64,000 nt of DNA from an uncultured Alphaproteobacteria bacterium. Lineage in GTDB: Bacteria > Pseudomonadota > Alphaproteobacteria > JAJTHO01 > G963706365. The DNA lies in NCBI GenBank assembly GCA_963706365.1, contig OY970150.1, positions 1,468,265 through 1,532,264 of the forward strand, read 5' to 3'. Both the position numbers and the translations under genes were made by a program. A model generated the notes under the pieces. That model saw nothing but the letters and a program-made list of their open reading frames with translations. It did no database searches and was not told the origin of the DNA. Shown piece by piece: positions 3,023-49,843 of the stretch (position 1 is its first letter; each line of letters opens with the position of its first letter).

Positions 3023-4582
3023 ATGCCTTCACGTTTTCATATTATTGCCCTTACACTGGCACTAACCATCATCGGCCTATGGCTGTTTTGGTATAAATAC
3101 AGTGTATTGCGTTACCCTTTAACCCCTGATTCAGAATACCGCAGCTGGTATGTAGAAACCACTTTAACAGCAAGCCCCAAAGCAAATGAACCGGTTACAA
3201 TTCAAATGTGGTTGCCGTCTAAAAGTAATAACCAGCTGGTTAGCTTAGATGAAACGTTCGTAAGCAGTGGCTATGGTATTCAAAAAAAGTTTGATAGTAA
3301 AACGGGCAATCGTTGGGTTATCTTAACAAAGCGCAATTTAAAAGAATCGGAGTCTATTCTCTATCGTACCACCTTGGTTGAGCTGGACTCTCGTGTTGAC
3401 AGACAACAACAATCAGCCATTAGTAGCCTCTATAATCAGGATAATCGCTACCAGCTCAATCTGCCTGATAATGCCCCGCTGTTTATTGCTATTGATTCCA
3501 TTATCGAAGAAGCCCGCTCTCGTTCTGCCGATGAAAGCAGCTTTGCAACAGAAATTTATCAGCTGGCTGCTTTGCAAGATGAGCGTACACGGATTATTTC
3601 TTATGAAGCAGAAGAACTTAAGCAAAATAAAAACTTGCCCCGCGCAGATGCCTTGGCTGTTCTTCTGTTAAACACTGCTGGCATACCGGCACGGTTAGCG
3701 AATGGTGTATTGCTAGCAGAAGGGCAGCGACGCGTATCCATTAATCATTGGACAGAAGTTTGGATAGATGGACGTTGGCAGGTTTTTACAGATAATATTT
3801 TGCAAAGCAAACCTAAGAATTACTTAACCTGGTGGTATGGTTATCAGCCACTTGTGCGCTATAGCGGGGCGCGTAATTTGGATACATTGATATCCGTTAA
3901 ACGCAACCTGGATAAGGCCTTAACCAGTGAATTAGCGGAGCAAAGACAAAACGCCTTGCCTATTCCAACGCTGTACCAGCTGCCGGTTGGCACACAGCTA
4001 ATTTTTGAAGTATTATTACTGATTCCTATCGGTGGTTTGGTCATTGCCTTTTTACGACAAATTATTGGCTTAATAACCTTTGGTACATTTATGCCCGTAT
4101 TGATTGCGCTGGCGTTCAGAGAAACAGGCTTATTTGCGGGTATTGTTTCTTTTTCTATTGTTGTTTTTCTGGGGTTACTTGTAAGAAGTTATTTCCATAA
4201 GTTACAGTTACTACTGGTGCCAAGGCTGGCTGCTGTCTTAACTGTGACCGTGCTTATTCTAATTGCTTTTAGTTTATTGGTGCATGCATGGGGATGGTCT
4301 GTTGGTTTAAGTGTATCTCTGTTCCCTATTGTGATTATGGCGATGGTTATTGAACGGATGGCCTTGCAATGGGATGAATATGGCGCGAAGAAAGCTATTC
4401 ACACCGGGTTGGGAAGTTTATTGGCAGCAGTCATTAGCTATTTTATAATGAACCTGAAAATTGTGGGGCACTTGCTGTTTACCTTTCCGGAATTACTCTT
4501 AGTTATTTTGGCGCTAACGATTATAATGGGGCGTTATAGTGGTTACAAATTAACAGAGTATTGGCGTTTTAAACAATTATGA
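3023..4582 (+). CDS. inactive transglutaminase-like domain fused to a C-terminal 7-TM region
   Basis: Transglutaminase-like core with the catalytic Cys replaced by Ala (LPRADALAVLLLNTAGIPARLANGV ... HWTEVWIDGRWQVFTD keeps the His/Asp positions). The C-terminal ~200 aa contains about 7 hydrophobic helices. The stop overlaps the next gene's start (ATGA at 4579-4582). Confidence 0.65.
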   Translation: MPSRFHIIALTLALTIIGLWLFWYKYSVLRYPLTPDSEYRSWYVETTLTASPKANEPVTIQMWLPSKSNNQLVSLDETFVSSGYGIQKKFDSKTGNRWVILTKRNLKESESILYRTTLVELDSRVDRQQQSAISSLYNQDNRYQLNLPDNAPLFIAIDSIIEEARSRSADESSFATEIYQLAALQDERTRIISYEAEELKQNKNLPRADALAVLLLNTAGIPARLANGVLLAEGQRRVSINHWTEVWIDGRWQVFTDNILQSKPKNYLTWWYGYQPLVRYSGARNLDTLISVKRNLDKALTSELAEQRQNALPIPTLYQLPVGTQLIFEVLLLIPIGGLVIAFLRQIIGLITFGTFMPVLIALAFRETGLFAGIVSFSIVVFLGLLVRSYFHKLQLLLVPRLAAVLTVTVLILIAFSLLVHAWGWSVGLSVSLFPIVIMAMVIERMALQWDEYGAKKAIHTGLGSLLAAVISYFIMNLKIVGHLLFTFPELLLVILALTIIMGRYSGYKLTEYWRFKQL

Positions 4583-5484
4583 TCTGGTACAAACGCTATA
4601 AGGAAAAAGGTATTGTGGGCATTAATGCGCGTAATAGCCGTTACATATTTCCCAATAACAAGCGAAAATATTTTCAGCTGGTTGATGATAAGCTGGAAAC
4701 GAAGACGGTGGCGGTGCAGGCTGGTATTCCTGTGCCTGAACATTATGAGACAATAATATACCAAGCACAGCTTAAGAACCTGGAACAAATTTTAAAACCT
4801 TATCATTCATTTGTTATAAAGCCCGCGCTGGGCAGTGGCGGGCAAGGCATTATGGTTATTGAAAAAAGGCGCGGCGATTATTTTGTAAAAGCCAGTGGCG
4901 ACGCTGTAACCATGGCTGAAGTTCAGCAACATATCAGTAATATTTTGAGCGGCCTATATTCATTAGGTGGGCAAAGCGATAAGGCTATTATTGAATATCG
5001 GGTACAAATCGACCCTGTTTTTAGTGATATTTCATGGAAAGGTGTGCCTGATATTCGGGTACTACTTTATAAAGGCATACCTGCCATGGCGATGCTGCGC
5101 TTACCAACCCGTGCTTCGGATGGTAAGGCTAACCTGCATATGGGCGGTATTGGGTGTGGTATCAATCTAGAAACAGGTATGACGACCACTGCTACGCAAG
5201 GGAATAAATATATTACCACACACCCTGAAACTGACGTAATTTTAAAAGGTCATATTATTCCTGATTGGCAAAATATTCTTAATATGGCTAGTCGTTTTTA
5301 TAGTCTAACAAAACTAGGCTATCTGGGGGTTGATATTGTACTAGATGAAAAACTAGGCGCCTTAGTATTGGAAGTAAATGCGCGCCCGGGTATTAGTATT
5401 CAAATTGCCAATAAACAGGGGCTTGAACCCATTTTACGAAAAATTGATCAATCTATTACTAATATTCACTTAAATATCACATAA
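4579..5484 (+). CDS. RimK-like ATP-grasp amidoligase (alpha-L-glutamate ligase-related protein)
   Basis: ATP-grasp fold motifs (VIKPALGSGGQGIMV, GYLGVDIVLDEKLGALVLEVNARPG), 301 aa. Translationally coupled to the upstream 7TM-transglutaminase gene. Confidence 0.65.
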   Translation: MIWYKRYKEKGIVGINARNSRYIFPNNKRKYFQLVDDKLETKTVAVQAGIPVPEHYETIIYQAQLKNLEQILKPYHSFVIKPALGSGGQGIMVIEKRRGDYFVKASGDAVTMAEVQQHISNILSGLYSLGGQSDKAIIEYRVQIDPVFSDISWKGVPDIRVLLYKGIPAMAMLRLPTRASDGKANLHMGGIGCGINLETGMTTTATQGNKYITTHPETDVILKGHIIPDWQNILNMASRFYSLTKLGYLGVDIVLDEKLGALVLEVNARPGISIQIANKQGLEPILRKIDQSITNIHLNIT

Positions 5485-5565: not shown

Positions 5566-6765
5566 ATGATACAGTTTGTTAAAAACACTTCCGGTACTTT
5601 TGCTATAATTGCTGCCATTGTTTTATTACCTATGGTAGGTTTAGGCGGGGCTGTATTAACATCTGGTAATGCTGTTTTAAATAAATCAGATTTGCAAAAC
5701 GCTGCTGATTTAGCTGCTATTTCTGCTAGTGCCACACAATTGGAAAATACTATAAAAGGCATGTCTGCGGAAGAATCTAGCCGAAAAGGTGGGGAAACGA
5801 TGCAACGTTTTTATGCCTACAATATAGATAAAAATCCAGATGAATTTGAGTTTACAGATGAGGGGACTGGAAGATTATCTATTAATGATGCTGGCAGTAC
5901 AGAAATTGCATTTAATGCCTATAATCCTGACAGAATTAACTATAATATTACGGCAACAGCAAGTGGAAATTATGAAGCTACTGCAGGTGGCGAGAGCACT
6001 TTTGAGTTGGTATATATGTATGATACTTCAAATTCAATGTACCGAACCGAAAGCCGAGGGGTAGACAGCGGGAAAACAGGAGTTGAACGTGTTCTAGAGA
6101 GTGCACAATCAAACTATCTTGCGCTCTTAGGGGGCTTATCGCGTGAGCAAAAAGACAATATTAGAGTGGCACAAGGTAGTTATCACTCTGTTACTCAGTT
6201 TATGACACCTGTGTTTACCAGTAATGAAAATCGATTAATCGCTGAAATTGAAAGGCGCTACCCTGGCAACAGAGTTGTTGGTGACCCCAGAACATCCCAT
6301 CCAAGTTATACGCGGGGTAAAACAAATACCCATGAGGCTGTTAGCGCTGCAATTGAAAAACTAAATAATAACAACTTTAATGTTCCCGGCAAAACAAATA
6401 GTCAGATCATAGTACTGATGACAGATGGGGCGCCTAGTTTGAGAACAGAGAACGATGCCTACGGCAATTTTGATCGATTTAATTTTTTTGATACCAGTAT
6501 GACTGAAAAAGAGATTGAAGTTAGACGAATTTCAGAATTGTGTAAATCTTTCACCGATAAACCGAACAACTATATATTTACTATCTATTTTGAAACATAC
6601 AGACACAACCCAACTGACAAAATACTTGAAGTTCAAGGCATGCAGAATTGCCAGAATGCTGGTTTCTATGAAGCAAGAACAGGCGCCGAGCTTGATGAGG
6701 TTTACGGAGCTATCAGAAGAAAACTTAGTGACTTTACTTACAATAAAGTAAAAATTGTTAAATAA
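5566..6765 (+). CDS. TadE/TadG-like pilus-assembly-type protein with C-terminal vWA domain
   Basis: N-terminal TadE-like hydrophobic segment (SGTFAIIAAIVLLPMVGLGGAVLTSG). vWA MIDAS residues are present: DTSNS (DxSxS), a conserved T (NTHEAV) and LMTDGAPS. Confidence 0.5.
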   Translation: MIQFVKNTSGTFAIIAAIVLLPMVGLGGAVLTSGNAVLNKSDLQNAADLAAISASATQLENTIKGMSAEESSRKGGETMQRFYAYNIDKNPDEFEFTDEGTGRLSINDAGSTEIAFNAYNPDRINYNITATASGNYEATAGGESTFELVYMYDTSNSMYRTESRGVDSGKTGVERVLESAQSNYLALLGGLSREQKDNIRVAQGSYHSVTQFMTPVFTSNENRLIAEIERRYPGNRVVGDPRTSHPSYTRGKTNTHEAVSAAIEKLNNNNFNVPGKTNSQIIVLMTDGAPSLRTENDAYGNFDRFNFFDTSMTEKEIEVRRISELCKSFTDKPNNYIFTIYFETYRHNPTDKILEVQGMQNCQNAGFYEARTGAELDEVYGAIRRKLSDFTYNKVKIVK

Positions 6766-6780
6766 GGAGTTTCAATTAAC

Positions 6781-6909
6781 ATAGTGATTCCAAAATAAAA
6801 CCGTGAGGGGCTGCGAGCGGCGCAAAATTTCGCTTATGTATCAAGAATACACGGCGCTCAATTTTACTTGCTCTCGCCTCCACACGGATTTATTTTGGAA
6901 TCACTATAT
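6781..6909 (+). repeat. MITE family A (copy 2)
   Basis: atagtgattccaaaataaaaccgtgaggggctgcgagcggcgcaaaatttcgcttatgta...ccacacggatttattttggaatcactatat. Over 90 percent identical to copies 1 and 3. Confidence 0.85.
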
Positions 6910-7001: not shown

Positions 7002-8543
7002 TTATTGCAAAAACCAAAGCTTATTGAGTAATCGGTTCGGGGTTTTAAATATCACTGTTAACGGCTGGCCAGGTTTCCCGATGATGGATTGATGTGTTGC
7101 AAGAATGATTCGAGCATATTGCGGGTTCTGGCTCATTTCTTTAGGCAGGCCGATCATTTGCTGATTGCTGGCACCTTCAATAGCCTTGATTTTTGCTTGT
7201 ATAGTTGTGTTATCTGCAAGTTTAATAACCGCCTGTGTACCAGTAGAAAGTTGCGGAACATTTTGCCAGGAAATCAAAGCCTCAACCGTTGTTTCTGGAT
7301 ATTGTAATACCATTAAAGGCGCGCCTTCTTTTACCCAGCTGCCATCAGCCACTAAAAGTTCGACCGGCTTGCAATCACAAGGGCTATCTAGTTTTATTTG
7401 TTGTAACTGCTGTTCCAGAAGCTCTTGTTTTTTAGAGAAAAAATCTATTTCGGCGTTCACCAATGCTATATCGCGCAGCACTTCATCGGGAGTATCTTTA
7501 TTGTTAAAAATTTCAGCCACTTCAGCACGCTCATTGGCTTCTTGAAGCTGTGCTTTTACTGCTGCTAAGGTTGCCTGTGTTGTTTTAAATTCCTGTTCTG
7601 CTATTTGTAATTGTTCAGCTGTAACATGACCTTTATCATAAAGATTTTCCGTACGTTGATAGGCTTTTTCAGCCTGCTCAGCCATAGCAGTGGCGGCAAC
7701 ACCTTCAGCCAGGCGCTGTTGGCTAACACTTTTGGCGGCTTTGCGCTGATAATAGGCATTACGCCCGGCTTTTTTTAATTGGCTTTCTAATACGGCAAGA
7801 CGCTGCTGTTGTAATTCTGTTTGAATTTTAACGGCTTTTTGTTCCGCCATTAAATCCATGTTTTCAATATGTAATAACGGTTGTCCCTTTTTAAAAGCTG
7901 TGGTGTTCTTCGTGTTTTTAGACAACAAGACACGCCCATCACTAGGGGCTGTAAGGGTTATGGCTGGTGCAGTAATCGCGGCATACGGCGATTCCAAGCG
8001 GAAAAACCAATAATGCAGGTAGGAACCTATAATAAATAATAGGCCTGCTAAAACCGCTAATGCAATAATATGGCGGGTGGGGTGTACTTTGGCATTTGTT
8101 TGTATATCTTGGTTGCGCTGCAGCACAGCCGCGCTGGCAGCAGCTTCTATGCCGCGTACCTGTACAGGAATTTGCTGTCGATAACAATTAACCATATAAT
8201 GCAACATGCCGGCAGTGGCAGGGGAAACATCAATAAATTGAAAGCCAATGTAACCGCCTTCTGTAATGTGCACTACTTCGGCTTTAACGCTACAGTTTTT
8301 TAGTTGCCCTTCATCTGTTGGCAATTGCAGGCGAATATCGACTTGCTGTTTTAAAATATAGCGGTTTTTACGATCTATTATAGCTATGCCCCCTTGCGAC
8401 CAGTTAACAATATGCGCGGGACGCCGGTTAATTAAGGCACCAAAATGCTGTGCCTTGTAACGCTCAAATAAACGCTGGCTACCATTCAGGTGCATCACAT
8501 TGTCATGCTCGTTTTGTGGGTTATCGGCCATATTGGATGACAA
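7002..8543 (-). CDS. Alg44-like co-polymerase: N-terminal PilZ domain, one TM helix, HlyD-type membrane-fusion domain
   Basis: PilZ motifs RxxxR (RRPAH) and NxSxGG (NWSQGGIAI), then the TM helix IIALAVLAGLLFIIGSYL, then a long coiled-coil / membrane-fusion region. Overlaps the upstream Alg8-like gene by 23 bp. Confidence 0.6.
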   Translation of the reverse strand: MSSNMADNPQNEHDNVMHLNGSQRLFERYKAQHFGALINRRPAHIVNWSQGGIAIIDRKNRYILKQQVDIRLQLPTDEGQLKNCSVKAEVVHITEGGYIGFQFIDVSPATAGMLHYMVNCYRQQIPVQVRGIEAAASAAVLQRNQDIQTNAKVHPTRHIIALAVLAGLLFIIGSYLHYWFFRLESPYAAITAPAITLTAPSDGRVLLSKNTKNTTAFKKGQPLLHIENMDLMAEQKAVKIQTELQQQRLAVLESQLKKAGRNAYYQRKAAKSVSQQRLAEGVAATAMAEQAEKAYQRTENLYDKGHVTAEQLQIAEQEFKTTQATLAAVKAQLQEANERAEVAEIFNNKDTPDEVLRDIALVNAEIDFFSKKQELLEQQLQQIKLDSPCDCKPVELLVADGSWVKEGAPLMVLQYPETTVEALISWQNVPQLSTGTQAVIKLADNTTIQAKIKAIEGASNQQMIGLPKEMSQNPQYARIILATHQSIIGKPGQPLTVIFKTPNRLLNKLWFLQ

Positions 8544-10005
8544 TATAGTTTAAGAGATAAATAAACGTAAAACTGACCACCAGTTGAGTGCTAACAGCGA
8601 TAGCCGTGTGCTGGTGTTTTACGGAAAGCAGGCTGTTCAGTTCGGGCAGAATCTGCCCTGTCCAGCCTTGTAATTGCGGGCGAAACACCGCACGCAATTT
8701 TATAACAGCACCGGCAACCTGATTGTAGTACAGCATGATCGGCATAGAAGGTTGCCAATTACGACCCATTATAGTTAGGCTGTAGATTGTACGGGTAATG
8801 AGAACCCATAAAATATAGAGTGTTAACAGCGGAAGAAACGCATAGCCCTGGATGCTTGATAATAATAGCAAAACGGGAGCCGATAAGGTTGTCCACGGTG
8901 CGATAAATTGATCAGCCAGTGACCACCAGGTAAATACTGGCATGCGGTGCGGGCCGATATTAATCGCTTTGCGCCCGGCACGATACATATTGCCGTACCA
9001 TCGGCGCATTAGTGGAATAGTCTGTTGCGTGAAGGAACCCGGTTTTGGTGTTTCCAAACTAGTGACCATTACATCAGGCAAATACAGCATCTGCCAGCGT
9101 CGCTTTAACAGCCATAGCCAACTGGACTTATCCTCGCCTGTTACAAACTTAATGCGCCCATATAGCCAATGTTTGATAGTATCGTGCTGAATTTGTGTAA
9201 TAAATGAATCTTGCGTCACTAAATGCGTGCGAAATACAGAAAATCGCCCTGTTAAAACCAATAGGCATTTTGAAAGTGCCATAGAGCCCATTAACCAATG
9301 CCGCTGGCAATGTTTCAAATTATACCATTGTTGTAACATCGGGTTATCGGGTTGCACGACAGCGCGGTTATTCACTGTTAATGCCCCTAGTTTTTCATTG
9401 GCATAAAAGTAGGGGGAAACTTCTTCAAAGCAACCGTGCGGAATTAAACTATCGCCATCCATTAAAATGGTCAGCCCATTTTGTTGCTCTGGTTGCCGCT
9501 GTAAAGCACGCAAGGCACTGGCCATGGCCGGGCGTTTGCCTAATCCATTTTGTGGCTCCGTGATTAAGCGATTTTGCGCGCAGGGATATTGACGAAACAA
9601 GCTTTCCGCATATAGTTGCTCGTCATGGTTGGTAACGCTGGCAATAATGGTGATAGGGTGGGGGCTTTCTGCCGCCTCTTCAAATAACCTTCTGAAAACA
9701 GCTTCAAAAACAATTTCATCTGTCTGGTAGGACATAATAATACAGTTGATGGGGTAATCATGCGCAGCCTGCTTATACAGACAATCTGTTGCGTTTCTCT
9801 TGATGGCCGGAAAGCGTACGGTGCGATAATATAAAGAGCGCAATAAATGCAGCCCGCCCCAGCTGTAACGCCAAATACCTATAGCACCCAAGGCAAACAA
9901 AACAGCAGGAGGCTGATAGCCTTGTGGCAACATTGCCAGTATGGATAAACATAATAAACAAAGCAAAAACAAACTGATAATAAATTTGGAGAAGCTGCCT
10001 TGCAT
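8521..10005 (-). CDS. Alg8-like processive family-2 glycosyltransferase (polysaccharide synthase catalytic subunit)
   Basis: 494 aa polytopic GT2 with GIWRYSWGG near the N-terminus, DGDS, and an LMRRW (QxxRW-type) motif. Same length as Pseudomonas Alg8, and the gene order matches alg8-alg44. Confidence 0.6.
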   Translation of the reverse strand: MQGSFSKFIISLFLLCLLCLSILAMLPQGYQPPAVLFALGAIGIWRYSWGGLHLLRSLYYRTVRFPAIKRNATDCLYKQAAHDYPINCIIMSYQTDEIVFEAVFRRLFEEAAESPHPITIIASVTNHDEQLYAESLFRQYPCAQNRLITEPQNGLGKRPAMASALRALQRQPEQQNGLTILMDGDSLIPHGCFEEVSPYFYANEKLGALTVNNRAVVQPDNPMLQQWYNLKHCQRHWLMGSMALSKCLLVLTGRFSVFRTHLVTQDSFITQIQHDTIKHWLYGRIKFVTGEDKSSWLWLLKRRWQMLYLPDVMVTSLETPKPGSFTQQTIPLMRRWYGNMYRAGRKAINIGPHRMPVFTWWSLADQFIAPWTTLSAPVLLLLSSIQGYAFLPLLTLYILWVLITRTIYSLTIMGRNWQPSMPIMLYYNQVAGAVIKLRAVFRPQLQGWTGQILPELNSLLSVKHQHTAIAVSTQLVVSFTFIYLLNYIVIQYGR

Positions 10006-10084
10006 ACAGTGGTACTAAAATACAACACTGTAAAAAGTAAAGAAAAATATTCTTAAAAATCAACTATTGGCCTATGCTTAGAAA

Positions 10085-11368
10085 GTGAAAAGGTATCTTC
10101 CACGCAGTTTATTTGGCCGTATTCTTATGATTATACTGTTGCCAATTATTTTGGTGCAGTTGCTTTCAACCTATTTTTTCCTCGAAAGGCATTGGGATAC
10201 TGTGTCTAGGCGACTAGCTATTTCACTGGCTAATGACATTGAACTGTTATTGAATCTTGAAGAAAATAACACAAAAGCGCAAAAAATACTGCAAGTACGC
10301 ATGCAACCTGTAGAAACAAATTGGCAAAACTTGCCATCTACAGCCAAGCCTTTTGGCTACCCGGCCTTAAAAAAAGAATTGAATAACCGGTTTCCCTACC
10401 CTTTTTATGTAACCAATGCCGGGGAAGATACTCTGGCTATTTATATCAAAAAGCCGGATCAAATTTGGCTATTTTCAGCCAATCACAAGCGCCTGTATAG
10501 TATTACTGTTTATCTTTACGTGCTAATTTCAACAATAATGGCGGTTATTTTAGCGACTATAGCCGTGCTATTTTCTCGTAATCAAATAAGGCCTATTCGT
10601 AGCCTGGCAAAAGCGATGATCCAGTTTGGTAAAACCAATCATGTGGTGCCTTTAAAGCCAAGTGGCGCAAGGGAAATACAGCTGGCTGCCACCGCTTTTA
10701 ATCGGATGCAGCAACGCATTAAAAACCAGGTAGAAGAGCGCACCTTTATGCTGGCGGGCATATCCCATGATTTGCGTACCCCTATTGCCCGCATGAAACT
10801 GGAATTAGCCATGCTACCGGATGAAACGGCTGGCAATTTCAAGCTAGATCTGAGAGAAATGGAGCATTTAATTAATAGCTATATTGAATTTGTAGAGGCG
10901 GGGCAGCATCATCAAAAAGAAGAGATTAGTTTGATAGATCTTTTAGAAGAGAGCATCCAGGATGTTCCTCAGTCAAACAGAGATAAAATACAGCTGCTTG
11001 CAAAGGAAAGTATTAGTGTTAAGCTGGACAGAAAAGCAACAAAGCGCTGTTTCTTAAACATACTATTAAACGCATGTCGCTATGGCAATAAAGTTGAAGT
11101 TTATGTTCAACGTAAAAAGAATTATTGTCGCATTTGTTTTCATAACGATGGTGAATCTATTCCTTTAACCGATCAGGAAAAGATATTTCAACCATTCTAC
11201 TCCGCTGATGGCAGTCATCAGCAAGGGGCTGGTTTAGGTTTGGCAATTTGCAAGGATATTATCGAACGGCATAATGGTATTATCTATGTTAATAATAATT
11301 TTCGCACGGATGGTGCAACAATTTGTATTGAACTGCCTCTAAAAGCTTACCCCAAAACCCACGTATAA
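10085..11368 (+). CDS. sensor histidine kinase, EnvZ-like (2 TM, HAMP, HisKA, HATPase)
   Basis: H-box GISHDLRTPIARM and G-box GAGLGLAICKDIIERHNG. No response regulator is adjacent. The last 5 codons and the stop (PKTHV*) lie in a solo MITE-B-type terminal inverted repeat. Confidence 0.8.
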   Translation: MKRYLPRSLFGRILMIILLPIILVQLLSTYFFLERHWDTVSRRLAISLANDIELLLNLEENNTKAQKILQVRMQPVETNWQNLPSTAKPFGYPALKKELNNRFPYPFYVTNAGEDTLAIYIKKPDQIWLFSANHKRLYSITVYLYVLISTIMAVILATIAVLFSRNQIRPIRSLAKAMIQFGKTNHVVPLKPSGAREIQLAATAFNRMQQRIKNQVEERTFMLAGISHDLRTPIARMKLELAMLPDETAGNFKLDLREMEHLINSYIEFVEAGQHHQKEEISLIDLLEESIQDVPQSNRDKIQLLAKESISVKLDRKATKRCFLNILLNACRYGNKVEVYVQRKKNYCRICFHNDGESIPLTDQEKIFQPFYSADGSHQQGAGLGLAICKDIIERHNGIIYVNNNFRTDGATICIELPLKAYPKTHV

Positions 11369-11373
11369 GTTGT

Positions 11374-11540
11374 AAGAGTTTACACCAAAACCCACGCAAA
11401 AGTTGAATTTTGTCTTTTTCGCTGCAAATTCCTTTGAAAAAGATACGAAATAGCCCGCTAGTCCGCCCTTTCCCAAAGAAATTTTCACAGAAAAATACTT
11501 CTTTCAACTTATACGTGGGTTTCCGCGTAAGCTCTAAAGA
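11374..11540 (+). repeat. MITE family B (copy 2), preceded by a solo TIR at 11343-11373
   Basis: taagagtttacaccaaaacccacgcaaaagttgaatttt ... ttcaacttatacgtgggtttccgcgtaagctctaaaga. It fills the convergent hisK/pyrB intergenic region. Confidence 0.8.
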
Positions 11541-12604: not shown

Positions 12605-13652
12605 ATGATTTTAACGGCGAACGCTAAAAACAATTTTGAAGAGGAAAAACAGTTTTTACGCGATGTATTTGAAAAAGAAGATCGTAATGGCTCTTCATTT
12701 TATATTTATAACTATGACCAGCGTTATTACAAAGTGCTTTCCGCCTGTGCCAAACTGCGGCTAAAAACACGTAATCTGCCAGAAGGCAACCCGCATTACA
12801 TTGAAATAAATGGCGATGACTGGGCGCGTATCATGGAAGATAATGAAGCCGCTGAAAAAGCAGCAGGAAAAAAAATCAACGTCGCAACAAGAAAAGAAAC
12901 CTTCTCAAAACGCTGAAAATTCAAAACGGGCAGAGCAGAAAAACAAAAAAGAAAATGTTGTGCCCATCAAACAGCATGAAGATGCGGCACCCAAAAAGAA
13001 TACTTTCAGCCTTTATGATGATGAAGAAACTGAAAAATATGATCCATTTGGTTCACTGAAAAACAATAAAGAAAAACAAGCGAGCCAACCACAACAATTT
13101 GAGATAGAGCAATCTGAATCAGAGCCAGACATTGAATCCGCCATTGAAGACCTAGTGAATCAACAAAAACCTGAAGAAGTTTATGTTCCTGAGCAGCCTG
13201 TTGAACAGGAAGCGAGGCCAGAACCTATGTCGCAAACAGCGCCTGCAGAACAGAAAGAAGAACCTATTATGCAACAAGCACCCGTTAATACCGCAAAAAA
13301 ATCTGATGAAGCAACGCAAAGCAATGCACCGCAACACAATCAATCCGATGACGAGAACCGTTTTCAAGGCGGTGGCAAACGATTAGAAGCCCTTCGTCAA
13401 CGTGAAAAAGCGGTGCAAATTCGTGAGCAAGCGGTTGATTCCAGAGAAGAAGAGCTTGATGCTGCTGAGCAGGATCTCATTAAAAAACAACAGTCTATGC
13501 AGCAAGATAAACAACGCCTGGATACACAGCGTCAGCAAATAGAAGAAGTGCGCAGCAAGGTTAATTCCGAGCAGCAAGAGCTGAAAAAAGCCCGTCAAAG
13601 CCTTGAAAAGCTTTCACAAGCACTTTCTGAAACAATGGATGTCTTGTCTTAA
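12605..13652 (+). CDS. hypothetical highly charged coiled-coil protein, apparently frameshifted at an A8 tract
   Basis: Two overlapping ORFs (12605-12916 and 12810-13652) are joined by a +1/-1 shift at aaaaaaaa (12868-12875). The C-terminal part is a Lys/Glu/Gln-rich low-complexity region followed by a coiled coil. Confidence 0.4.
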
Positions 13653-13847
13653 AAGCTTGCGCGGAAAGCTTTTAGAGATTAGAAGCTTTTACTGCCCTCT
13701 AGCTAAAGCCAATTGCCTTTATACAGTGTCGATCTTATTTTAGACGGCGCAATTAAGAACTAGTCAGCTAAAACTGGCAATTTATCTTTCGCTCAAAAAT
13801 ATACCTGAAAACCTAAATCACAAGTTTTAGGCGACTGGTTCGTATTT

Positions 13848-14420
13848 TTAATCCGGACTAACGGCATCTAGATCTTGTAGGCCTACGCCCGCCGCGCGAA
13901 ACGCCGGGTTAATGGGTAAGCCTAAAGCGGCCACGGCTGTATCATCCAGCAAGCCGGGGCTGTTGCTTTGAACCTGTGCTACCAACTGGGTTAAAATAAC
14001 TTGTTGTTCTTCTTCTGGAAAAGCACTGGCTGTTACAATCAAAATTTCTGCAACATTTGTAGGGTCAGCGGCCACAATAGCAGCCACAATATCGGCTAGC
14101 TGATTCTGTATAGCCGCATTATCGCTGTTTGCTAATTGTTGTGCCAATAGGGAGGCTGTGCCGGATGAGCCGTTATTAACAGCAAAACTTGCAATCTGTT
14201 GGCTAAGAGAGGGGTTGGCAATGGCCAAGGTTGCGGCCGCCTGAGAACAAATTGCTGTATTGTCTACATTATCAGGTGATGTATTCGCCTCGTTTTGTAC
14301 ACAAGCGGCATTCAACGCAGTGCTGATATCTGTTGGCAAAGCTGTTTGTGCCAGGCTTGCATTGGCTTGAAAAAAAGTAAGGGCAGCCAGGCTAAACAAA
14401 GAAGCAGTCTTTATCATCAT
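13848..14420 (-). CDS. secreted Ala/Gln/Asn-rich low-complexity protein with signal peptide
   Basis: N-terminus MMIKTASLFSLAALTFFQANASLAQ, with an AXA cleavage-site-like motif. 190 aa. Confidence 0.45.
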   Translation of the reverse strand: MMIKTASLFSLAALTFFQANASLAQTALPTDISTALNAACVQNEANTSPDNVDNTAICSQAAATLAIANPSLSQQIASFAVNNGSSGTASLLAQQLANSDNAAIQNQLADIVAAIVAADPTNVAEILIVTASAFPEEEQQVILTQLVAQVQSNSPGLLDDTAVAALGLPINPAFRAAGVGLQDLDAVSPD

Positions 14421-14573
14421 TTTTTGTTCCTTTTGAAGAAAACAATACTAGTATATTTTTAAAATAAAAGCATTAACATTAGAAATATCACCGGGCGCGA
14501 TGCTGGATGTGGTATGATTGCCACGACTGATTAAAGGGTTTATGCCTTTTATGAAAGTGCTTATAACCATCTC

Positions 14574-17252
14574 ATGATTAAAACACTGTCGCGCGGTATT
14601 TTCGGTTCTGCCAATGATCGCCTGGTTAAAAAATTAAGTAAACGCATCAATAAAATCAATGCGTTGGAACCAGAAATGCAGGCTCTTTCAGATGATCAAC
14701 TAAAAGCAAAAACCCAAGAATTTCGCCAACGTCTTGAAACTGGTGAAGATTTAGATAATATGGTTTCTGAAGTTTTCGCAACGGTTCGCGAAGCCTCGCA
14801 ACGCTGTATGGGAATGCGCCATTTTGATGTGCAGCTGGTGGGCGGGCTGGTTTTGCATAACGGGATGATTACTGAAATGCGAACCGGGGAGGGGAAAACT
14901 CTTGTTGCAACCCTAGCGGCCTATTTAAATGCCTTGTCGGGCAAGGGGGTGCATGTGGTAACCGTAAATGATTACCTAGCCAAGCGAGACGCCCAGTGGA
15001 TGAGCAAGCTTTATGAATTTCTAGGGCTTTCCTGTGCCTACATAATAAACGGCCTGGACGATAGAGAGCGTAAGGCTGCCTATCAATGTGACATTACATA
15101 CGCTACGAATAACGAGTTAGGCTTTGATTACTTGCGGGATAATATGAAATTCCGCGTGGAAGAAATGGTGCAACGCCCTTTGAACTATGCCGTTATTGAT
15201 GAAGTAGATAGTATCTTAATTGATGAAGCCCGAACGCCTCTTATTATCTCTGGCCCGGCTGAAAGTTCTAGCGAACTTTACATAAAAGTGAATGCATTAA
15301 TTGGTAGACTGGATGATAGCGCCGTTAGTATTGATGAAAAGCACAGAAATCTTAGCTTAACCGAACATGGTCAGCAACAGCTGGAAGAACTATTAAAGGA
15401 AACCGGTTTAATTCAACATGGCGGTTTGTATGATATTCATAACGTCAATTTATTGCACCATGCGCAGCAGGCTATTAAGGCGTGGCGGCTTTATACCAAA
15501 GATAAAGATTATGTTGTGCACCAAGGCAAGGTGATGATTGTTGATGAATTTACGGGCCGCATGATGGATGGACGTCGTTTTTCTGAAGGTCTGCATCAGG
15601 CCTTGGAAGCAAAAGAGGGGGTGGAAATTCAACAGGAGAATCAAACACTAGCTTCTATTACATTTCAAAATTATTTCCGTAACTATCAAAAACTATCGGG
15701 AATGACAGGAACAGCTATGACAGAGGCGGCAGAATTTGAAGAAATTTATGGTCTTAGTGTTGTTTCCATTCCTACCAATGTGCCTGTTCAGCGGCAAGAC
15801 GAACAGGATAAAATTTACCGTACAGAAGCGGAAAAAAACATGGCTATTGTTGAAGATGTTCTGGAACGCAGTAAATCTGGCCAACCTGTTTTATTGGGAA
15901 CAACAACTATTGCTAAATCAGAACAATTATCGCAGCTGTTTAAAACGCACAAAATTAACCACTCTGTGCTAAATGCGCGGTTCCATGAACAAGAAGCGGA
16001 AATTGTGGCGAATGCCGGTGCACCAGGTGCAATCACCATTGCCACCAATATGGCCGGACGTGGAACAGATATTCAGCTGGGTGGTAATTTAGAGATGCGT
16101 TTGCATAACGCGGATGAGCCTGACGCCGTGAAGCAACAACATGCCAAAGACAAGGCAAAGGTTTTAGAAAGTGGTGGGCTGTATGTTTTGGGTTCTGAGC
16201 GGCACGAAAGCCGGCGGATAGATAATCAGTTGCGCGGTAGAGCCGGTAGACAAGGTGACCCCGGTCTATCTCTTTTCTATATTTCTATGGAAGATGATTT
16301 AATGCGTATATTCGGTTCAGAGCGCATTGACCCCTTATTAAAAAAGCTGGGCCTAAAAGATGGCGAAGCCATTACGCACCCATGGTTAAGTAAATCAATG
16401 GAGCGTGCCCAAAAACGCGTTGAAAACCGCAACTTTGAAATACGTAAAAACCTGTTGAAATATGATAATGTGATGAATGACCAGCGTACGGTTATTTATG
16501 AGCAACGCCGTGAAATTATGGAAGCAGAAGACGTGCGAGACATTATTAAAGAGTTTCGTGATGATGTGGTGTGCGATATCGTTATTTTGGCTGTTCCCCC
16601 TAAATCTTACCCCGATGATTGGGATATTGATGGGCTGGATAATGCCACCAAACGCATTCTAAACCTTGATTTACCCATTCAACAATGGGCCAAAGAAGAT
16701 GGTGTTTCAGAAGAGGAACTGATTGAGCGTATTCGCGGTGCTTCTGATCAGCACTTTGCCCATAAGCGGCAGCAATATGGCGATGATTTGCTGAAAGAAA
16801 TGGAGAAATCTATCATGCTTCAAATGCTTGATCAGGTTTGGAAAGAACATCTTTTAGCATTAGACCATCTGCGCCAGGGCATTAATTTACGTGCCTATGC
16901 CCAGAAAGACCCGCTTAATGAGTATAAACGAGAAGCCTTTGAATATTTTTCCGCTATGCTGGAGCGTTTAAAAGAAAACGTTGTAACCGTCCTTTCTAGT
17001 ATGGAAATAGAAGCTGTTCCAAGCGAACCACTTGATTTATTTGGTGCAGAAGAACAGCAAATGCAGGCGTCACACCCTTCTGTAGCACCTGAACCGGCAG
17101 AGCAGCCGAATGGAACACCGGCACACACAAGAAATCTATCAGCAACAGGAATAGACACGAACAACCCGGAAACATGGGGGCGTGTGGCGCGTAATGCCCC
17201 ATGCCCTTGTGGTTCTGGAAAGAAGTTTAAGCATTGCCATGGGGCTCTTTAG
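14574..17252 (+). CDS. secA: preprotein translocase ATPase SecA
   Basis: 892 aa. Walker motifs present and the C-terminal zinc-binding tail [14 protein letters not shown]. Confidence 0.95.
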
Positions 17253-17264
17253 GTGACTGGTTTT

Positions 17265-17393
17265 ATAGTGCTTCCAAAATAAAACCGTGAGGGGCTGCGA
17301 GCGGCGCAAAATTTCGCTTATGTATGAAGAATACACTGCGCTCAATTTTACTTGCTCTCGCCTCCACACGGATTTATTTTGGAATCACTATAT
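17265..17393 (+). repeat. MITE family A (copy 3)
   Basis: Immediately 3' of secA. Near-identical to copy 2. Confidence 0.85.
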
Positions 17394-17457
17394 TTTGGAA
17401 GCATTATCAATAACGCCCTAATATTGTAAAAATATCCCGCCATGTAGCGGGATATTC

Positions 17458-20599: not shown

Positions 20600-21361
20600 T
20601 CAAGCCTGATAGCCACTGGCCACTTGCTGTTGGCAATACTGTGACAGCGTTTTACGATTATCAAAATCTTGACGTGCCACCGGAGCGTGCAAGGTCAACT
20701 GCACCGTTGTGTTACCCTGCTTTAAAAATTGCCACAGGTGGCTGGCCATTTCCATGTCGCCAAACCAGGTAAATAATGGGCGGTGCACACGGCGTACGGG
20801 AATACCATCAATATGCGTATAGGCGATAGTAACTGGCTGGATATTTAATTGTTCTGTCTGCTCAATGAGGCGTGCAACGCTAAAAAGTGTGCTTTTAAAA
20901 GGCAGCACTCTGTTACCATTGGCGCTGGTACCTTCGGGAAATAAGATGAGGTTATTACAACTTTTCAGTGCTTTTGCCAAGGAGTCTTGTTGTTCGGCCG
21001 CTTTGCGTGGGTTGCGTTCTATAAACAAGGTATTCTGGCACTTTGATAAAAAGCCGAAAACTGGCCATTTTTCTACTTCTTTTTTTGCCACAAACCATCC
21101 ACTTAGTTTACTGCCTATCACTACAATATCGAGATAACTTACATGGTTAGAAACATATAGAACGGGGGCGTTTGTGCATATGTCGCCGTTTATTTTTACT
21201 TTCAAACCAACACTTTTACACATCATAATGTGCCACCACATGGCCATTTTTAAACCGGCTGGTGCATTAATGCGTTTTACAATGATTAGCGGGGGGATGA
21301 TGATGAATGTCCAGAAAATCATCATAAAAATTCTAAAAACAGCCAGCAGGTTTTGAATCAT
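20600..21361 (-). CDS. plsC: lysophospholipid (1-acyl-glycerol-3-phosphate) acyltransferase
   Basis: HxxxxD motif NHVSYLD and FPEGT. ATGA overlap with the metK stop. Confidence 0.7.
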
Positions 21362-22542
21362 GCGCTTACTTTAAAGCTGTCTTGAAATTTTTCCACCAGA
21401 CTTAATTTTTCCCAGGTAAAAAAACCATCTTCGGTGGGGGCGCGGCCAAAATGCCCATAAGAGGCCGTAGGCTGATAAATGGGTTTATTCAGGTCTAGTG
21501 TTTGCCGAATGCCAGTGGGGGTAAGATCAATTGTCTCGATAATCCAGTCAGCTACCTGCTTTTCGTCCAGTGATGTTGTGTCATGGAAATTTAAATAAAC
21601 CGATAAGGGGCGTGCCACGCCAATGGCATAGGATAGTTGCAAAGTGCAACGTCTTGCCAGGCCTGCGGCTACAATATTTTTAGCTAGATAACGTGCCATA
21701 TAGGCAGCCGAACGATCAACTTTTGTCGGGTCTTTGCCAGAAAACGCCCCGCCGCCATGGGGGGCGGAACCGCCATAGGTATCAACAATAATTTTACGGC
21801 CCGTAAGCCCGGCATCACCGTCGGGGCCACCAATAACGAAGCGGCCAGTGGGGTTAATATGAATGTGTTCTGATGATGGTACCCAGCCTTGCGGCAATTG
21901 CTTTTGTAATGCGTGCATCACAATTTGCCGCACATCTTTTTGCTTGAGATCTTCATTGTGTTGTGTGGAAACCACAATAGAAGTGCAGCCAACGGGGCGT
22001 TCATTTTCGTATAACAGCGTAACCTGGCTTTTGGCATCTGGCCCTAACCCTTTATAAATACCAGCGTGCCGACCTTCGCTTAGGTCGCGTAAAATTTTAT
22101 GGGCATAATAGATGGGGGCGGGCATAAAAATGTCTTTATCGCCCACTACTTCGTTGGTGGCATAGCCAAACATAATGCCTTGGTCTCCCGCACCTTCTAG
22201 TTTATCGCCAGACTGATCAACGCCGACCGCAATATCAACGGATTGCTCGTGTATGTAATTGGCAATGTCCAGACTTTTCCAGTGAAAGCCGCGCTGCTCG
22301 TAGCCGATTTTTTTTACCGTTTCACGCACAATGGCGTCAATCCGATCTTTTGTCATGGTATCCGCGCCGCGCACTTCCCCGGCAAGAATCACACGATTTG
22401 TTGTTGCCATGGTTTCCACCGCTACGCGGGCTTCCGGTAGTTCGGTCAGGTGTGCATCCAAAATAGCATCAGAAATCTGATCACAAATTTTGTCGGGGTG
22501 GCCTTCGGAAACGGATTCACTGGTAAAAAGAAATTGTGACAT
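21358..22542 (-). CDS. metK: S-adenosylmethionine synthetase
   Basis: GHPDK, GAGDQG and DTYGG motifs. 394 aa. Confidence 0.95.
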
Positions 22543-22662: not shown

Positions 22663-25384
22663 TTAGTCTTCTAAGCTAGAAGCAATTTCTTTCACATCGA
22701 AACATTCAATTTGGTCGCCCACTTTAACGTCAGAATAATTTTCAAAGGCCATACCGCACTCTGTTCCATTACGCACTTCTTTCACTTCATCTTTAAAGCG
22801 TTTCAGGGTTTTTAGCTTGCCTTCATGAATAACCACGTCATCGCGTAGTAAACGAACACGACAACCACGTTTGATGGTACCATCGGTAACAATACAACCC
22901 GCAATATTGCCTACTTTGGTAATATTGAAAACTTCCAGAACTTTGGCGTAGCCAAGGAAATTTTCCTGCAAAGTTGGGTCTAACATACCAGTTAACACCA
23001 TATCAATATCATCCATCAAGTTGTAGATGACAGAGTGATAGCGCACATCCACTTCATCGCGCTTGGCAACTTGGCGGGCTTGGGGGTTGGCACGTACGTT
23101 AAAGCCAACGACAATGGCATTACTAGCTTTGGCCAACACAACATCACTTTCGGTGATAGCACCAACGCCACTGTGAATAACTTTTACACCTACTTCATCA
23201 TTACCCGATTTTTGCATGGCTGCATTAATCGCTTCTAAAGAACCATGCACGTCTGTTTTAACAACAAGCGCCAGGTATTTTTTACCGTCTGCAGCAGCGG
23301 CAAACAAGCTATCAACGCTTTGTGCACGCATGGCGGCGGCTTCTTTTTCGCGAATCTGACGCTGGCGAAACTCTGATATTTCTCGTGCTTTTGCTTCAGA
23401 ATCAACGACAACCAGCGTTATCACCGGCTTTTGGTGTGCCATTCAGGCCTAACACAGCAATCGGCATCGCTGGAATCGCTTCGTTGTGGCGTTGATCATC
23501 TTCATCTAACAAGGCACGCACACGCCCCCATTCCGTGCCAACAACAAAGATATCTCCCACCCGCAAGGTTCCACGCTGTACCAGAACAGTGGCAACAGAA
23601 CCACGCCCTTGGTCTAACTGTGATTCTACCACGATGGCTTCGGCGTTGCGGTTCGGGTTTGCTTTTAGTTCGAGTACTTCGGATTGCAGTAAAATTGCTT
23701 CTTGCAATTTATCCAGGCCTTCGCCGGTTTTTGCAGAAACAGGAACAGACATTACTTCACCGCCCATTTCTTCAACAACAAGTTCATGGCTTAATAAATC
23801 GGAACGTACTTTATCAACATTGGCACCCGGCGTATCAATTTTATTAATAGCAACAATAATAGGTACACCTGCTGCTTTTGCATGGTTTAGGGCTTCTATG
23901 GTTTGTGGCTTGATGCTGTCATCTGCTGCAATGACCAAAATAACGATATCGGTCACATTGGCGCCACGTGCCCGCATTTCGGTAAAGGCCGCATGGCCAG
24001 GGGTATCAACAAACGATATTTTTTCACCGTTATCTGTTTCAATCTGATAGGCACCAATATGTTGTGTGATACCTCCTGCTTCACCATGGGCGACACGTGC
24101 TTTACGCAGCGCATCCAACAAAGACGTTTTACCATGATCAACATGCCCCATAATGGTAACAACAGGCGGGCGTGGTTGCAGGTCTTCGGCTTCATCTTCG
24201 CCAGAAATCAATGCATCTTCCACATCAGTTTCAGCCACTCGTTTTGCACTGTGACCCAGCTCTTCAACAACAAGCTCAGCTGTATCAGCATCAATTGTTT
24301 GTGTGGCCGTAGCCATAATGCCCAGCTTCATTAGCTCTTTTACAACATCGGCTGTTCTCTCGGTCATCCGATTGGCCAGCTCTTGTACAGTAATGGTTTC
24401 TGGCAGAATAATTTCGCGGTAAACTTTTTCTTTTAGAACGGTGTCACCAGTTTTGCGGCGCTCTTTTTGTTGGCGACGACGTGCAGAGGCTAGACTATGG
24501 GTTCTATCATCTCGGCCATTGAGCACGTTGTTTAAACTTAAGCGACGTTGACGACGTGGCTCTATACGGCGTGCTACAGCAGCGGGACGGGCATGCTCTT
24601 GTTCGCTTGCTGGGCGGGCATTCGGGCCAAAATTAGCTTTAACTTTAGCTTGACGCTCTAGCTCTTGCTTATCTTTTTCCTGTTTTGCTTCCTGTTCCCG
24701 TTCTTTACGTGCTTTTTCAACCTGGGCACTTAAGTCCGGTTTATCGCGGCGCACAATACGCCGCAATGGTGTTGTAGGAATTGTAGAAGTTGTTTTTCTT
24801 GGGGCCACAACAGGTGTTTTTGGTGGTTCTGGAACCACGGCCATTTCCTTGGCGGCAGCGGCAAGCTCTTGGGCTGTGTCATCAACCTTGATATTTAGTT
24901 TAACTTTTTCCGGCTTTGCCTCGGGTTGCGGGGCAGGTTGCTCGAATGCGGTTTTAATTTCTGTGTCAACCGGTTTCGTTTCTTTTTCAGCTGCTGGCGC
25001 ACTTTGCTCTACTTTTTGAATGCCACGCAATTGCTCTGCTTGTTTTGTTTTGGGTGCATCGCCGGAATCAATGTTTTGTAGGGCTTTTAACCGCGTTGCC
25101 CGCTCAGCCGGCGTTAGGCGAGCTAGTTCTTCAGAAATCTGGTTGCCGTCGGCATCAACTTCTTTTTTATCAGTAGGGGCTGTGATGGCGGGTGTGAACG
25201 TCGGCTTTAACCCCCCTGCATTGGCCGGGCGCTGCAATACACTACGCTTACGTTTTACTTCAACAGTGACAGTGCCTGACCCAGCACGTTTATTTAGGTC
25301 AATCGGCTTTTTTAAACCAAGGGTTCCGCCGCTAATGCTTAGCGGTTTTTGGGGGTTGTTATCTTTTTTATCGCTTGCGCTCAT
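22663..25384 (-). CDS. infB: translation initiation factor IF-2, split by an apparent frameshift near 23416
   Basis: ORF 23402-25384 encodes the N-terminal, G and part of the beta-barrel domains and ends ...[18 protein letters not shown] 22663-23442 continues ...[13 protein letters not shown] in another frame. The join is aac-g-ctg. Confidence 0.85.
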
Positions 25385-49715: not shown

Positions 49716-49843
49716 ATAGTGATTCCAAAATAAATCCGTGTGAAGGCGAGAGCAAGCAAAATTGAGCGCAATGTATTCTTCATGCATAAGCGAAATTTTG
49801 CGCCCCTCGCAGCCCCTCACGGTTTTATTTCGGAATCACTATA
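49716..49843 (-). repeat. MITE family A (copy 4, inverted, more divergent)
   Basis: atagtgattccaaaataaatccgtgtgaaggcgagagcaag...cctcacggttttatttcggaatcactata. Confidence 0.8.

Follow-up and report, generated by a model that had tools for sequence, protein, structure and literature searches.

A predicted two-gene, cyclic di-GMP-gated polysaccharide synthase related to Alg8/Alg44, with an EmrA-like adaptor, in an uncultured alphaproteobacterium

Introduction

The glycosyltransferase Alg8 and its membrane partner Alg44, known from Pseudomonas and Azotobacter, are the closest described relatives of the gene pair analysed here. Canonical Alg44 passes the chain to a scaffold made up by AlgK, AlgE, AlgG and AlgX, and to our knowledge the well-studied synthase-dependent systems of Gram-negative bacteria, those for alginate, cellulose, poly-N-acetylglucosamine (PNAG) and Pel, all use a dedicated tetratricopeptide repeat (TPR) protein together with a beta-barrel. 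The pair described below lies in a stretch of 64,000 nucleotides of contig OY970150.1 (assembly GCA_963706365.1) from an uncultured alphaproteobacterium, in the following called the window. It encodes a family 2 glycosyltransferase (GT2) and a partner protein in which a PilZ domain is joined to a periplasmic adaptor of the EmrA kind. We infer that the pair is a two-gene, cyclic di-GMP (c-di-GMP) gated, synthase-dependent exopolysaccharide machine that belongs to an accessory-less sister clade of Alg8/Alg44.

Two further systems are instructive for comparison. In Sinorhizobium meliloti a mixed-linkage beta-glucan is made by BgsA and BgsB, a c-di-GMP-activated GT2 enzyme and a membrane-fusion protein; a dedicated outer-membrane component is not known for this module. 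The c-di-GMP receptor is there the C-terminal region of the synthase, whereas in the pair studied here the PilZ domain sits on the adaptor; furthermore BgsA is akin to cellulose and curdlan synthases, whereas the synthase of the window shows no sequence-level similarity to BcsA. The other comparison is with the adaptors of tripartite pumps. MacA, AcrA, MexA and HlyD contact the tip of TolC by an RxxxLxxxxxxS/T motif (RLS or RLT) in their hairpin, and binding to TolC has been shown (PMC3391258).

Part of what follows is already known. The family relationship is implicit in database annotation, 'atypical' alginate operons without algKE or modification genes have been noted earlier (PMC7112194), and alg8 and alg44 of Halomonas have been mentioned in passing (PMC11890756). 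In a full-text literature search (Alg44, hairpin, TolC) neither the two-gene clade nor its TolC-type hairpin was found to be described. A structure of the Alg8/Alg44 complex was listed as outstanding in a 2021 review (PMC8461298), and searches of the PDB with the sequence and with a profile of the synthase found none.

Results

Layout of the locus

The locus consists of two overlapping genes on the minus strand, a divergent kinase gene and a miniature inverted-repeat transposable element (MITE). All positions are those of the window.

8521-10005, minus strand: Alg8-like processive GT2 polysaccharide synthase, 494 amino acids (aa); ATG start, two transmembrane (TM) helices at the N-terminus, a GT-A domain in the cytoplasm and a bundle of TM helices at the C-terminus
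7002-8531, minus strand: Alg44-like partner, 509 aa; PilZ domain, one TM helix, EmrA-like periplasmic adaptor
10006-10084, unstranded: divergent intergenic region of 79 bp separating the kinase gene from the synthase operon
10085-11368, plus strand: EnvZ-like sensor histidine kinase, 427 aa (two TM helices, HAMP, HisKA, HATPase_c)
6781-6907, unstranded: MITE of 127 bp, bounded by terminal inverted repeats; its distance downstream from the partner's stop codon is 94 bp

In the list of open reading frames (ORFs) the partner had been called from a TTG start (7002-8543, minus strand, 513 aa). The ATG at 8531 gives the 509-aa form, which is also the call in an independent assembly of the same organism, and places the start of the partner gene in an 11-nt overlap with the end of the synthase gene. 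The partner is translationally coupled to the synthase. A preliminary description of the locus, made from the letters of the sequence, had reported a synthase gene overlapping the gene of a PilZ-TM-membrane-fusion protein, an EnvZ-like kinase gene starting about 80 bp upstream on the opposite strand and a MITE at the end of the pair. This arrangement was found again in our analysis. A scan for promoters and terminators around the pair gave counts not above the shuffled background.

The synthase is a member of the Alg8 family

The synthase matches the Pfam families Glyco_tranf_2_3 (6.5e-27) and Glyco_trans_2_3 (3.1e-11), and the strings GIWRYSWGG, DGDS and RRW, which the preliminary description quotes for it, are present. 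Three motifs are of particular relevance:

9451-9459, minus strand: DGD (DxD) metal and nucleotide-sugar motif, residues 183-185; invariant in 121 homologues
9124-9138, minus strand: GEDKS, residues 290-294 (family consensus GDDKS); G290, D292, K293 and S294 invariant
8986-9012, minus strand: LMRRWYGNM, residues 332-340; R335, W336, G338, N339 and M340 invariant

By its position GEDKS presumably represents the catalytic-base motif (GED/TED) known from processive GT2 synthases, and we take LMRRWYGNM to be the family version of the QxxRW acceptor-binding motif. The family-invariant motifs (WRY.W, GKR, DGD, TGR, G[DE]DKS, LM.RWYGNM and DQ) are all found in the protein. An AlphaFold (AF2) model calculated on the family alignment reached a mean predicted local distance difference test score (pLDDT) of 92.3 and a predicted TM-score (pTM) of 0.91. 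When this model was compared with the PDB by Foldseek, hyaluronan synthases were the best matches (about 1e-14); chitin synthases and BcsA came next (about 1e-8), all with identities of 12-14%. The modelled fold and the motifs indicate that the 494-aa protein is a membrane-embedded processive GT2 synthase.

A sequence search of the PDB gave no match for the synthase, neither with the single sequence nor with a profile of 121 sequences, and the protein is consequently no close kin of BcsA, PgaC, hyaluronan synthase or chitin synthase. An identity as cellulose, PNAG or hyaluronan synthase was rejected for this reason. The PilZ domain, in BcsA a C-terminal part of the synthase itself, is here located on the partner. 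As canonical reference we used a metagenomic contig (L088) with the gene order algD-alg8-alg44-algK-algE-algI-algJ-algF-algX-algL-algG. The synthase is homologous over its full length to Alg8 and is 32% identical to the Alg8 of the reference contig over 464 aa (E 4e-75), so that the best homology is to Alg8, as had been proposed, and not to the cellulose or PNAG synthases. In a collection of 5.8 billion proteins the nearest relative of the synthase was 72% identical and all others 35-43%; those homologues which carry a name in IMG are called 'glycosyltransferase Alg8' or 'mannuronan synthase'.

About 100 positions are conserved to at least 90% in operon-embedded Alg8 proteins, and the synthase of the window differs at about 20 of them. 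The subgroup of minimal pairs, however, consistently swaps only six of these positions (D129E, T211V, L288V, G356P, G376A and Y104F), the last of them in only 43% of the subgroup. With so few replacements at Alg8-conserved positions the synthase probably shares its catalytic chemistry, and perhaps also its substrate, with Alg8.

The partner joins an Alg44-like PilZ domain to an EmrA-like adaptor

The Pfam matches of the partner are PilZ (8.7e-07) and HlyD_3 (1e-08), and its best NCBIfam match is the EmrA/EmrK subfamily TIGR00998 (3.1e-16, below the cutoff). Its parts are as follows:

8178-8480, minus strand: cytoplasmic PilZ domain, residues 18-118
8460-8474, minus strand: R20xxxR24 (RLFER) of the PilZ domain; R20 kept in 42/44 and R24 in 43/44 homologues
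8388-8405, minus strand: N43xS45xxG48 (NWSQGG) of the PilZ domain; S45 kept in 42/44 and G48 in 44/44 homologues
8001-8081, minus strand: single TM helix, residues 151-177; hydrophobic HIIALAVLAGLLFIIGSYLHYWFF, modelled as a helix, between PilZ and HlyD_3
7398-7859, minus strand: periplasmic alpha-helical hairpin, residues 225-378; AF2 helices 225-299, 305-338 and 348-378
7620-7655, minus strand: tip of the hairpin, RTENLYDKGHVT, R293-x3-L297-x6-T304 (R293-TEN-L297-YDKGHV-T304); modelled turn
7371-7385, minus strand: SPCDC signature common to the Alg44 proteins of alginate operons; P384 invariant, each Cys in 38/44 homologues

Apart from the protein itself, a word-indexed search for relatives of the partner returned a single relative (59% identity), whereas an exhaustive HMMER search yielded 585. 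The PDB sequence search with the PilZ region gave no significant match, the Alg44 PilZ entries included, and the PilZ signature was judged by the conservation of its motifs in the family alignment of 44 partner homologues. Both R20xxxR24 and N43xS45xxG48 are intact in this alignment, and from this signature the PilZ domain is predicted to bind c-di-GMP.

With Alg44 the partner shares the N-terminal PilZ domain with RxxxR and (D/N)xSxxG, the single TM helix, the periplasmic membrane-fusion-like domain and SPCDC, and the two adjacent genes stand in the same order as alg8 and alg44. In the alignment with the Alg44 of the reference contig (P0275) two blocks of 25% and 32% identity (E 1e-12 and 5e-10) flank a long insertion, and the SPCDC sequences of both proteins are aligned. 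The same signature occurs in short homologues of about 380 aa, one of them a protein named Alg44 in IMG and located in the reference contig. Unlike these, the partner has 509 aa in comparison with the approximately 380-390 aa of Alg44, because it contains an alpha-hairpin of 140-155 aa with an RLT tip. Moreover, BSH_ALG44 (PF25964) and Beta-barrel_ALG44 (PF25965), both of which are recorded for P0275, gave no Pfam match in the partner at E <= 0.01. The assignment as an Alg8/Alg44-type pair is thus upheld with respect to kinship, but the partner is not a plain Alg44.

The AF2 model of the partner (pLDDT 90.5) shows a PilZ barrel (residues 31-118), the TM helix, a barrel-sandwich domain, the hairpin and a beta-barrel. 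The hairpin is an insertion of about 140-155 aa relative to the short Alg44 proteins and is modelled as a 75-residue ascending helix followed by two descending helices. Foldseek placed EmrA (4tko) first (3.6e-17), followed by the EmrA chains of EmrAB-TolC (1e-14) and then by MacA, ZneB and MexA; EmrA is also the sole sequence-level match of the partner in the PDB (phmmer 2.5e-4). The order barrel-sandwich, long alpha-hairpin, beta-barrel is that of the EmrA, HlyD and MacA adaptors, and the tip carries the RxxxLxxxxxxS/T motif with which such adaptors contact TolC (PMC3391258). Among 39 long-form homologues the R and the L of this motif are each kept in 37, and S or T is present in 25. In IMG the long-form partners are labelled 'multidrug resistance efflux pump'; as a function this was rejected, since these proteins have a PilZ domain and the SPCDC signature and are constantly paired with the synthase.

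The spacing between PilZ and SPCDC is a measure that can be compared between operon types. It amounts to 198-211 aa in alphaproteobacterial alginate operons and to 277-282 aa in Halomonas-type operons; spacings of 340-355 aa were found only in pairs without accessory genes, the partner of the window having 340 aa. In our sample the longest hairpin is thus found where dedicated genes for periplasmic and outer-membrane components are lacking.

Relatives of the pair and their gene neighbourhoods

Relatives were collected by scanning GTDB with an LMRRWYGNM-type family pattern, which gave at least 600 matches. A sample of 80 species-representative loci and several metagenomic contigs was analysed by clustering the neighbouring ORFs and annotating the cluster representatives with Pfam. 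A PilZ/adaptor partner adjoins the synthase in 75 of 86 loci sampled, and an AlgD-like UDPG/GDP-mannose dehydrogenase in 61 of 85. Also encoded repeatedly beside the synthase are an AlgA-type GDP-mannose pyrophosphorylase/isomerase, a beta-helix protein (AlgG-like), an MBOAT protein (AlgI), SGNH proteins (AlgX/AlgJ), AlgF, alginate lyase (AlgL), lyases of family PL14 and large proteins with Sel1 repeats. From these alg-type neighbours it follows that the synthase family is the alginate-type synthase family, which extends far past Pseudomonas into the Alphaproteobacteria and the Halomonadaceae.

Beyond its own clade, the synthases closest in sequence (35-43% identity) come from two compact operon types. 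In the Halomonadaceae and Thalassobaculum the order is algD-alg8-alg44-PL14-AlgL-Sel1 protein, and in Alphaproteobacteria it is algD-alg8-alg44-algA-algG-algI-algX-algF and further genes. The Halomonas-type partners also have a hairpin insertion with an R-x3-L tip. In contrast to the pair of the window, which has none of them, the compact operons retain GDP-mannose dehydrogenase, lyases and Sel1/TPR proteins, and the hairpins of their partners are absent or about 70 aa shorter.

A neighbour-joining (NJ) tree was calculated from 88 synthases. A split with a bootstrap support of 97/100 separates the synthases with alg-type neighbours from all those without such neighbours. The accessory-less side comprises the synthase of the window and that of its nearest relative (L002), pairs from alphaproteobacterial metagenome-assembled genomes (MAGs) or unassigned metagenomes (L007, L026, L086 and L087), five synthases of freshwater MAGs without an adjacent partner and pairs of Vibrionaceae. 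The genomic contexts of the accessory-less pairs are unrelated to each other: they are situated between glutathione peroxidase and fliL/fliM, after the gene of a methyl-accepting chemotaxis protein or beside comEC. From this tree the accessory-less pairs appear to be an old separate clade, sister to Alg8/Alg44. The preliminary description had called the module stripped-down, which agrees with the lack of accessory genes in the window; the term suggests a recent loss, however, whereas the tree points to an old separate clade.

Two further observations concern members of this clade. The synthase genes of four freshwater alphaproteobacterial MAGs (L006, L008, L009 and L014) follow genes for an aminotransferase, an M23 peptidase and an S41 (CtpA-like) protease in conserved order, and their partner may be unlinked or unnecessary. 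In the Vibrionaceae loci of Enterovibrio and Grimontia (L004, L036 and L045) the gene for the long-hairpin partner is located upstream of the synthase gene, that is, in reversed order.

Both genes of the pair are conserved

The pair and its gene overlap are conserved in the relative L002, in which the synthase is 73% and the partner 59% identical. Between the two organisms dN is 0.21 for the synthase, 0.33 for the partner and 0.22 for the housekeeping gene pyrB, with dS saturated in all three cases; dN/dS of the pair is consequently only bounded. Both proteins are identical in the second, independent assembly, which matters since the window shows signs of indels elsewhere. Judged from these comparisons both genes appear to be under strong purifying selection, and hence not to be relics.

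On the L002 contig a run of short ORFs that all match Alpha-amylase was observed at 13579-16880 and 20637-21482. It resembles a fragmented glycoside hydrolase gene and suggests ongoing decay in this lineage.

Accessory genes were not found in the window

Using the AlgD-like, PL14, AlgL and Sel1/TPR proteins of related operons as queries, tblastn gave no match in the 64-kb window. Of the 51 ORFs in the window that reach 150 aa or more, 46 were scanned with Pfam (the remainder being pyrB, secA and three short ORFs nested in longer genes), and among the scanned ORFs there was no TolC-like (OEP-family) protein, GGDEF domain, nucleotide-sugar enzyme, response regulator or other alg gene. Unlike alg8 and alg44, the pair is thus accompanied by none of algD, K, E, G, X, L, I, J, F and A within 64 kb, and the earlier statement that alg genes for export, modification and lyase do not follow the pair could be extended to the whole window. 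The gene order across the window is scrambled and MITEs are frequent.

The divergent kinase gene

The best NCBIfam match of the kinase is EnvZ (6e-62), with 209.9 bits below the cutoff of 415 bits; Legionella-type CpxA also appears among the NCBIfam kinase matches. No receiver domain was detected in the window by jackhmmer with three response regulators, nor was there a Pfam Response_reg match, so that the kinase is an orphan within 64 kb, as previously described. In L002 the arrangement pyrB, kinase, synthase and partner is conserved, with the same divergent layout of kinase and synthase and a gap of 76 bp; for the kinase we obtained a dN of 0.25 and a dS of 2.1. The EnvZ-like kinase may control transcription of the pair, a link that is suggested by synteny in one relative, L002, only.

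The gap between the stop codon of the kinase gene and pyrB is filled by a second palindromic element of about 190 bp (11344-11535), which overlaps the last kinase codons. Its arms of 34 nt are 88% complementary and its inner arms of 68 nt are 75% complementary; it may represent another MITE family. A further instance of signalling genes beside a minimal pair was seen in Enterovibrio (L004, the single Vibrionaceae locus with annotated neighbours). Here the pair lies about 1 kb downstream of genes for a response regulator and for a hybrid histidine kinase of 1334 aa; an ORF of 112 aa occupies the interval.

Host genome and other features of the window

The SecA protein is at most 62% identical to that of Rhodospirillales, which characterises the organism as a deep-branching alphaproteobacterium. 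The window also encodes a ChpT-type histidine phosphotransferase (PF10090; 59274-59918, minus strand), and ChpT is a marker of the alphaproteobacterial CckA-ChpT-CtrA relay. In agreement with SecA, this shows that the organism is not a gammaproteobacterium despite EnvZ and Legionella-type CpxA among the NCBIfam kinase matches. The contig of 1.87 Mb, the MITEs and an ankyrin-repeat protein suggest a host-associated lifestyle.

Four complete copies of the MITE, all 127 bp long and intergenic, are present in the window:

92-218, MITE copy
6781-6907, MITE copy, the one at the end of the pair
17265-17391, MITE copy
49716-49842, MITE copy

They have terminal inverted repeats of about 25 nt (ATAGTGATTCCAAAATAAAACCGTG...). 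The 19-nt terminus of the element occurs nine times in the window, compared with 0.05 expected occurrences, and a partial fifth terminus is located at 17389-17407.

Several other genes of the window deserve mention. The infB gene for IF-2 (22663-25384, minus strand) is split into the overlapping ORFs 23402-25384 and 22663-23442. Near 23415-23425 the sequence reads 'GGT GAT AAC G CTG GTT GTC GTT GAT', with one extra base before a conserved stretch, that is, a +1 frameshift, which in an essential gene is either an assembly indel or something unusual. A Peptidase_C39 plus ABC_membrane exporter of the bacteriocin or type I secretion type (43435-45690, plus strand, 437 aa) has no ATPase domain; the following 900 bp or so contain only short ORFs of 62-121 aa, and the gene looks fragmented. 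An intact exporter of this kind would need an adaptor and a TolC-like channel.

At 3023-5484 (plus strand) lie two overlapping genes, the first for an RloB-like inactive-transglutaminase/7TM protein (1e-94; 318 bits, far below the 900-bit cutoff) and the second for a RimK-related alpha-L-glutamate-ligase-like ATP-grasp protein (TIGR02291, 1.9e-114, above the cutoff). The two form a conserved two-gene module, after which a TadE/VWA protein is encoded at 5566-6765. Two large consecutive ORFs of 720 and 529 aa with a 4-nt overlap (37323-41071, plus strand) gave no Pfam match. Together with the ankyrin-repeat protein (27170-27640) they are candidates for host-interaction proteins.

Discussion

The pair can be combined into a model which consists of a c-di-GMP-gated synthase, a pump-type adaptor, an unlinked TolC-family channel and a mannuronan-like product, and to which, taken as a whole, we give an even chance. 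According to this model the synthase and the partner would form a complex in the inner membrane, and c-di-GMP binding by the PilZ domain would switch on polymerisation and translocation, both by the precedent of Alg8/Alg44, from which post-translational activation by c-di-GMP is expected by analogy (PMC8461298). The anatomy of the adaptor and the correlation of hairpin length with operon type suggest that the adaptor probably forms an oligomer around the synthase and attaches to an outer-membrane channel of the TolC family whose gene is unlinked. A conduit resembling a tripartite pump would then replace the AlgK/AlgE route and make algK and algE unnecessary. The preliminary description had given no export route for the pair; since the hairpin is EmrA-like and has an RLT tip, a TolC-family channel can now be put forward as a concrete hypothesis.

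With respect to the product, a mannuronan-like acidic homopolymer would be the simplest assumption, because almost every residue that is invariant in operon Alg8 proteins is retained. It would presumably be unmodified, since epimerase, acetylase and lyase were not found in the window, and it would require an unlinked GDP-mannose dehydrogenase.

Three features set the adaptor apart from EmrA, HlyD and MacA. Its inner-membrane partner is a glycosyltransferase and not a transporter of the major facilitator, ATP-binding cassette (ABC) or resistance-nodulation-division type, a cytoplasmic PilZ domain is fused to its N-terminus, and the cargo would be nascent polysaccharide. An unlinked outer-membrane partner, on the other hand, would be in line with emrAB and hlyBD.

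Several observations weigh against the model. No TolC-like gene of the OEP family was among the Pfam-scanned ORFs, a GDP-mannose dehydrogenase or another nucleotide-sugar gene is absent from the window, and no diguanylate cyclase was seen there. As the dehydrogenase was not found, a different sugar donor is possible. The subclade that unites the minimal pairs with the orphan synthases is weak (60/100), and the tree is by NJ only, on 88 sequences. Within the same clade the synthases of four freshwater alphaproteobacterial MAGs, named above, are not adjacent to a PilZ/adaptor gene, from which it follows that the adaptor is not always linked. Finally, the RLS-like tip motif is short and is also kept in Halomonas-type partners, which coexist with large Sel1-repeat proteins, so that the tip could make another contact.

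A more general claim goes beyond the locus itself. The accessory-less pairs could represent a distinct and widespread type of secretion, in which an EmrA/HlyD-type adaptor that senses c-di-GMP connects a glycosyltransferase directly with a TolC-family channel, in effect a tripartite efflux pump for a polysaccharide. Neither a TPR lipoprotein nor a dedicated beta-barrel would be needed, and the product would possibly not be alginate. We advance this claim tentatively, with less confidence than the model for the pair.

Another possibility is that the pair is the core of an ordinary alginate (polymannuronate) synthase which works as in Pseudomonas, the helper genes (algD, algA, algK, algE, algL and others) being scattered in a rearranged, MITE-rich genome. 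The homology to Alg8 and Alg44 of a canonical operon and the nearly complete retention of the catalytic and family-invariant residues are as expected for such a core, the scrambled gene order of the window and its frequent MITEs would fit it as well, and algC is unlinked even in P. aeruginosa (PMC8461298). However, the accessory-less relatives group apart (97/100) and include free-living Vibrionaceae as well as freshwater MAGs of Alphaproteobacteria with ordinary genomes. As none of the well-flanked accessory-less loci has accessory genes within about 10 kb, dispersal would be needed in all of them. In addition, the hairpin of 140-155 aa and the lack of BSH_ALG44 and Beta-barrel_ALG44 set the partner apart from the operon-type Alg44 proteins. 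We therefore regard an ordinary alginate core as unlikely.

More doubtful still is a change of substrate, by which the Alg8 resemblance would reflect ancestry only. The pair would then make a neutral or amino-sugar polymer similar to hyaluronan, chitin or a mixed-linkage glucan, following the logic of GT2 enzyme plus membrane-fusion protein known from BgsA/BgsB. It would account for the lack of a GDP-mannuronate supply gene in the window, when such a gene is adjacent in 61 of 85 relatives, and for the separate clade with its few replacements, among them D129E and T211V in the glycosyltransferase domain and, in the window, GEDKS for GDDKS. Hyaluronan synthases were also the best structural matches, but this ranking only mirrors which synthases have been solved, and no sequence-level similarity to any solved GT2 synthase was found. 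Furthermore, very few of the Alg8-invariant positions differ.

It is very improbable that the pair is a decaying remnant of an alginate operon which makes nothing in a reduced, host-associated genome: the small contig with its MITEs and ankyrin-repeat protein, the infB frameshift and the fragmented ABC exporter nearby and the fragmented alpha-amylase genes of L002 would fit such a remnant, whereas both ORFs are full length with identical proteins in the second assembly, none of the catalytic or c-di-GMP motifs is damaged, L002 has retained the pair together with its overlap, with a dN equal to that of pyrB and a saturated dS, and the two-gene architecture is widespread.

Should the accessory-less clade indeed use a TolC-docking hairpin, it would represent a different and much simpler solution for the export of a polysaccharide than a dedicated TPR protein and beta-barrel. 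The pair would also offer a system of only two proteins for the question of how c-di-GMP on an Alg44-type PilZ domain activates an Alg8-type synthase. Since the family spans an apparently host-associated alphaproteobacterium, freshwater alphaproteobacterial MAGs and Vibrionaceae, its product could be an overlooked matrix or capsule polymer.

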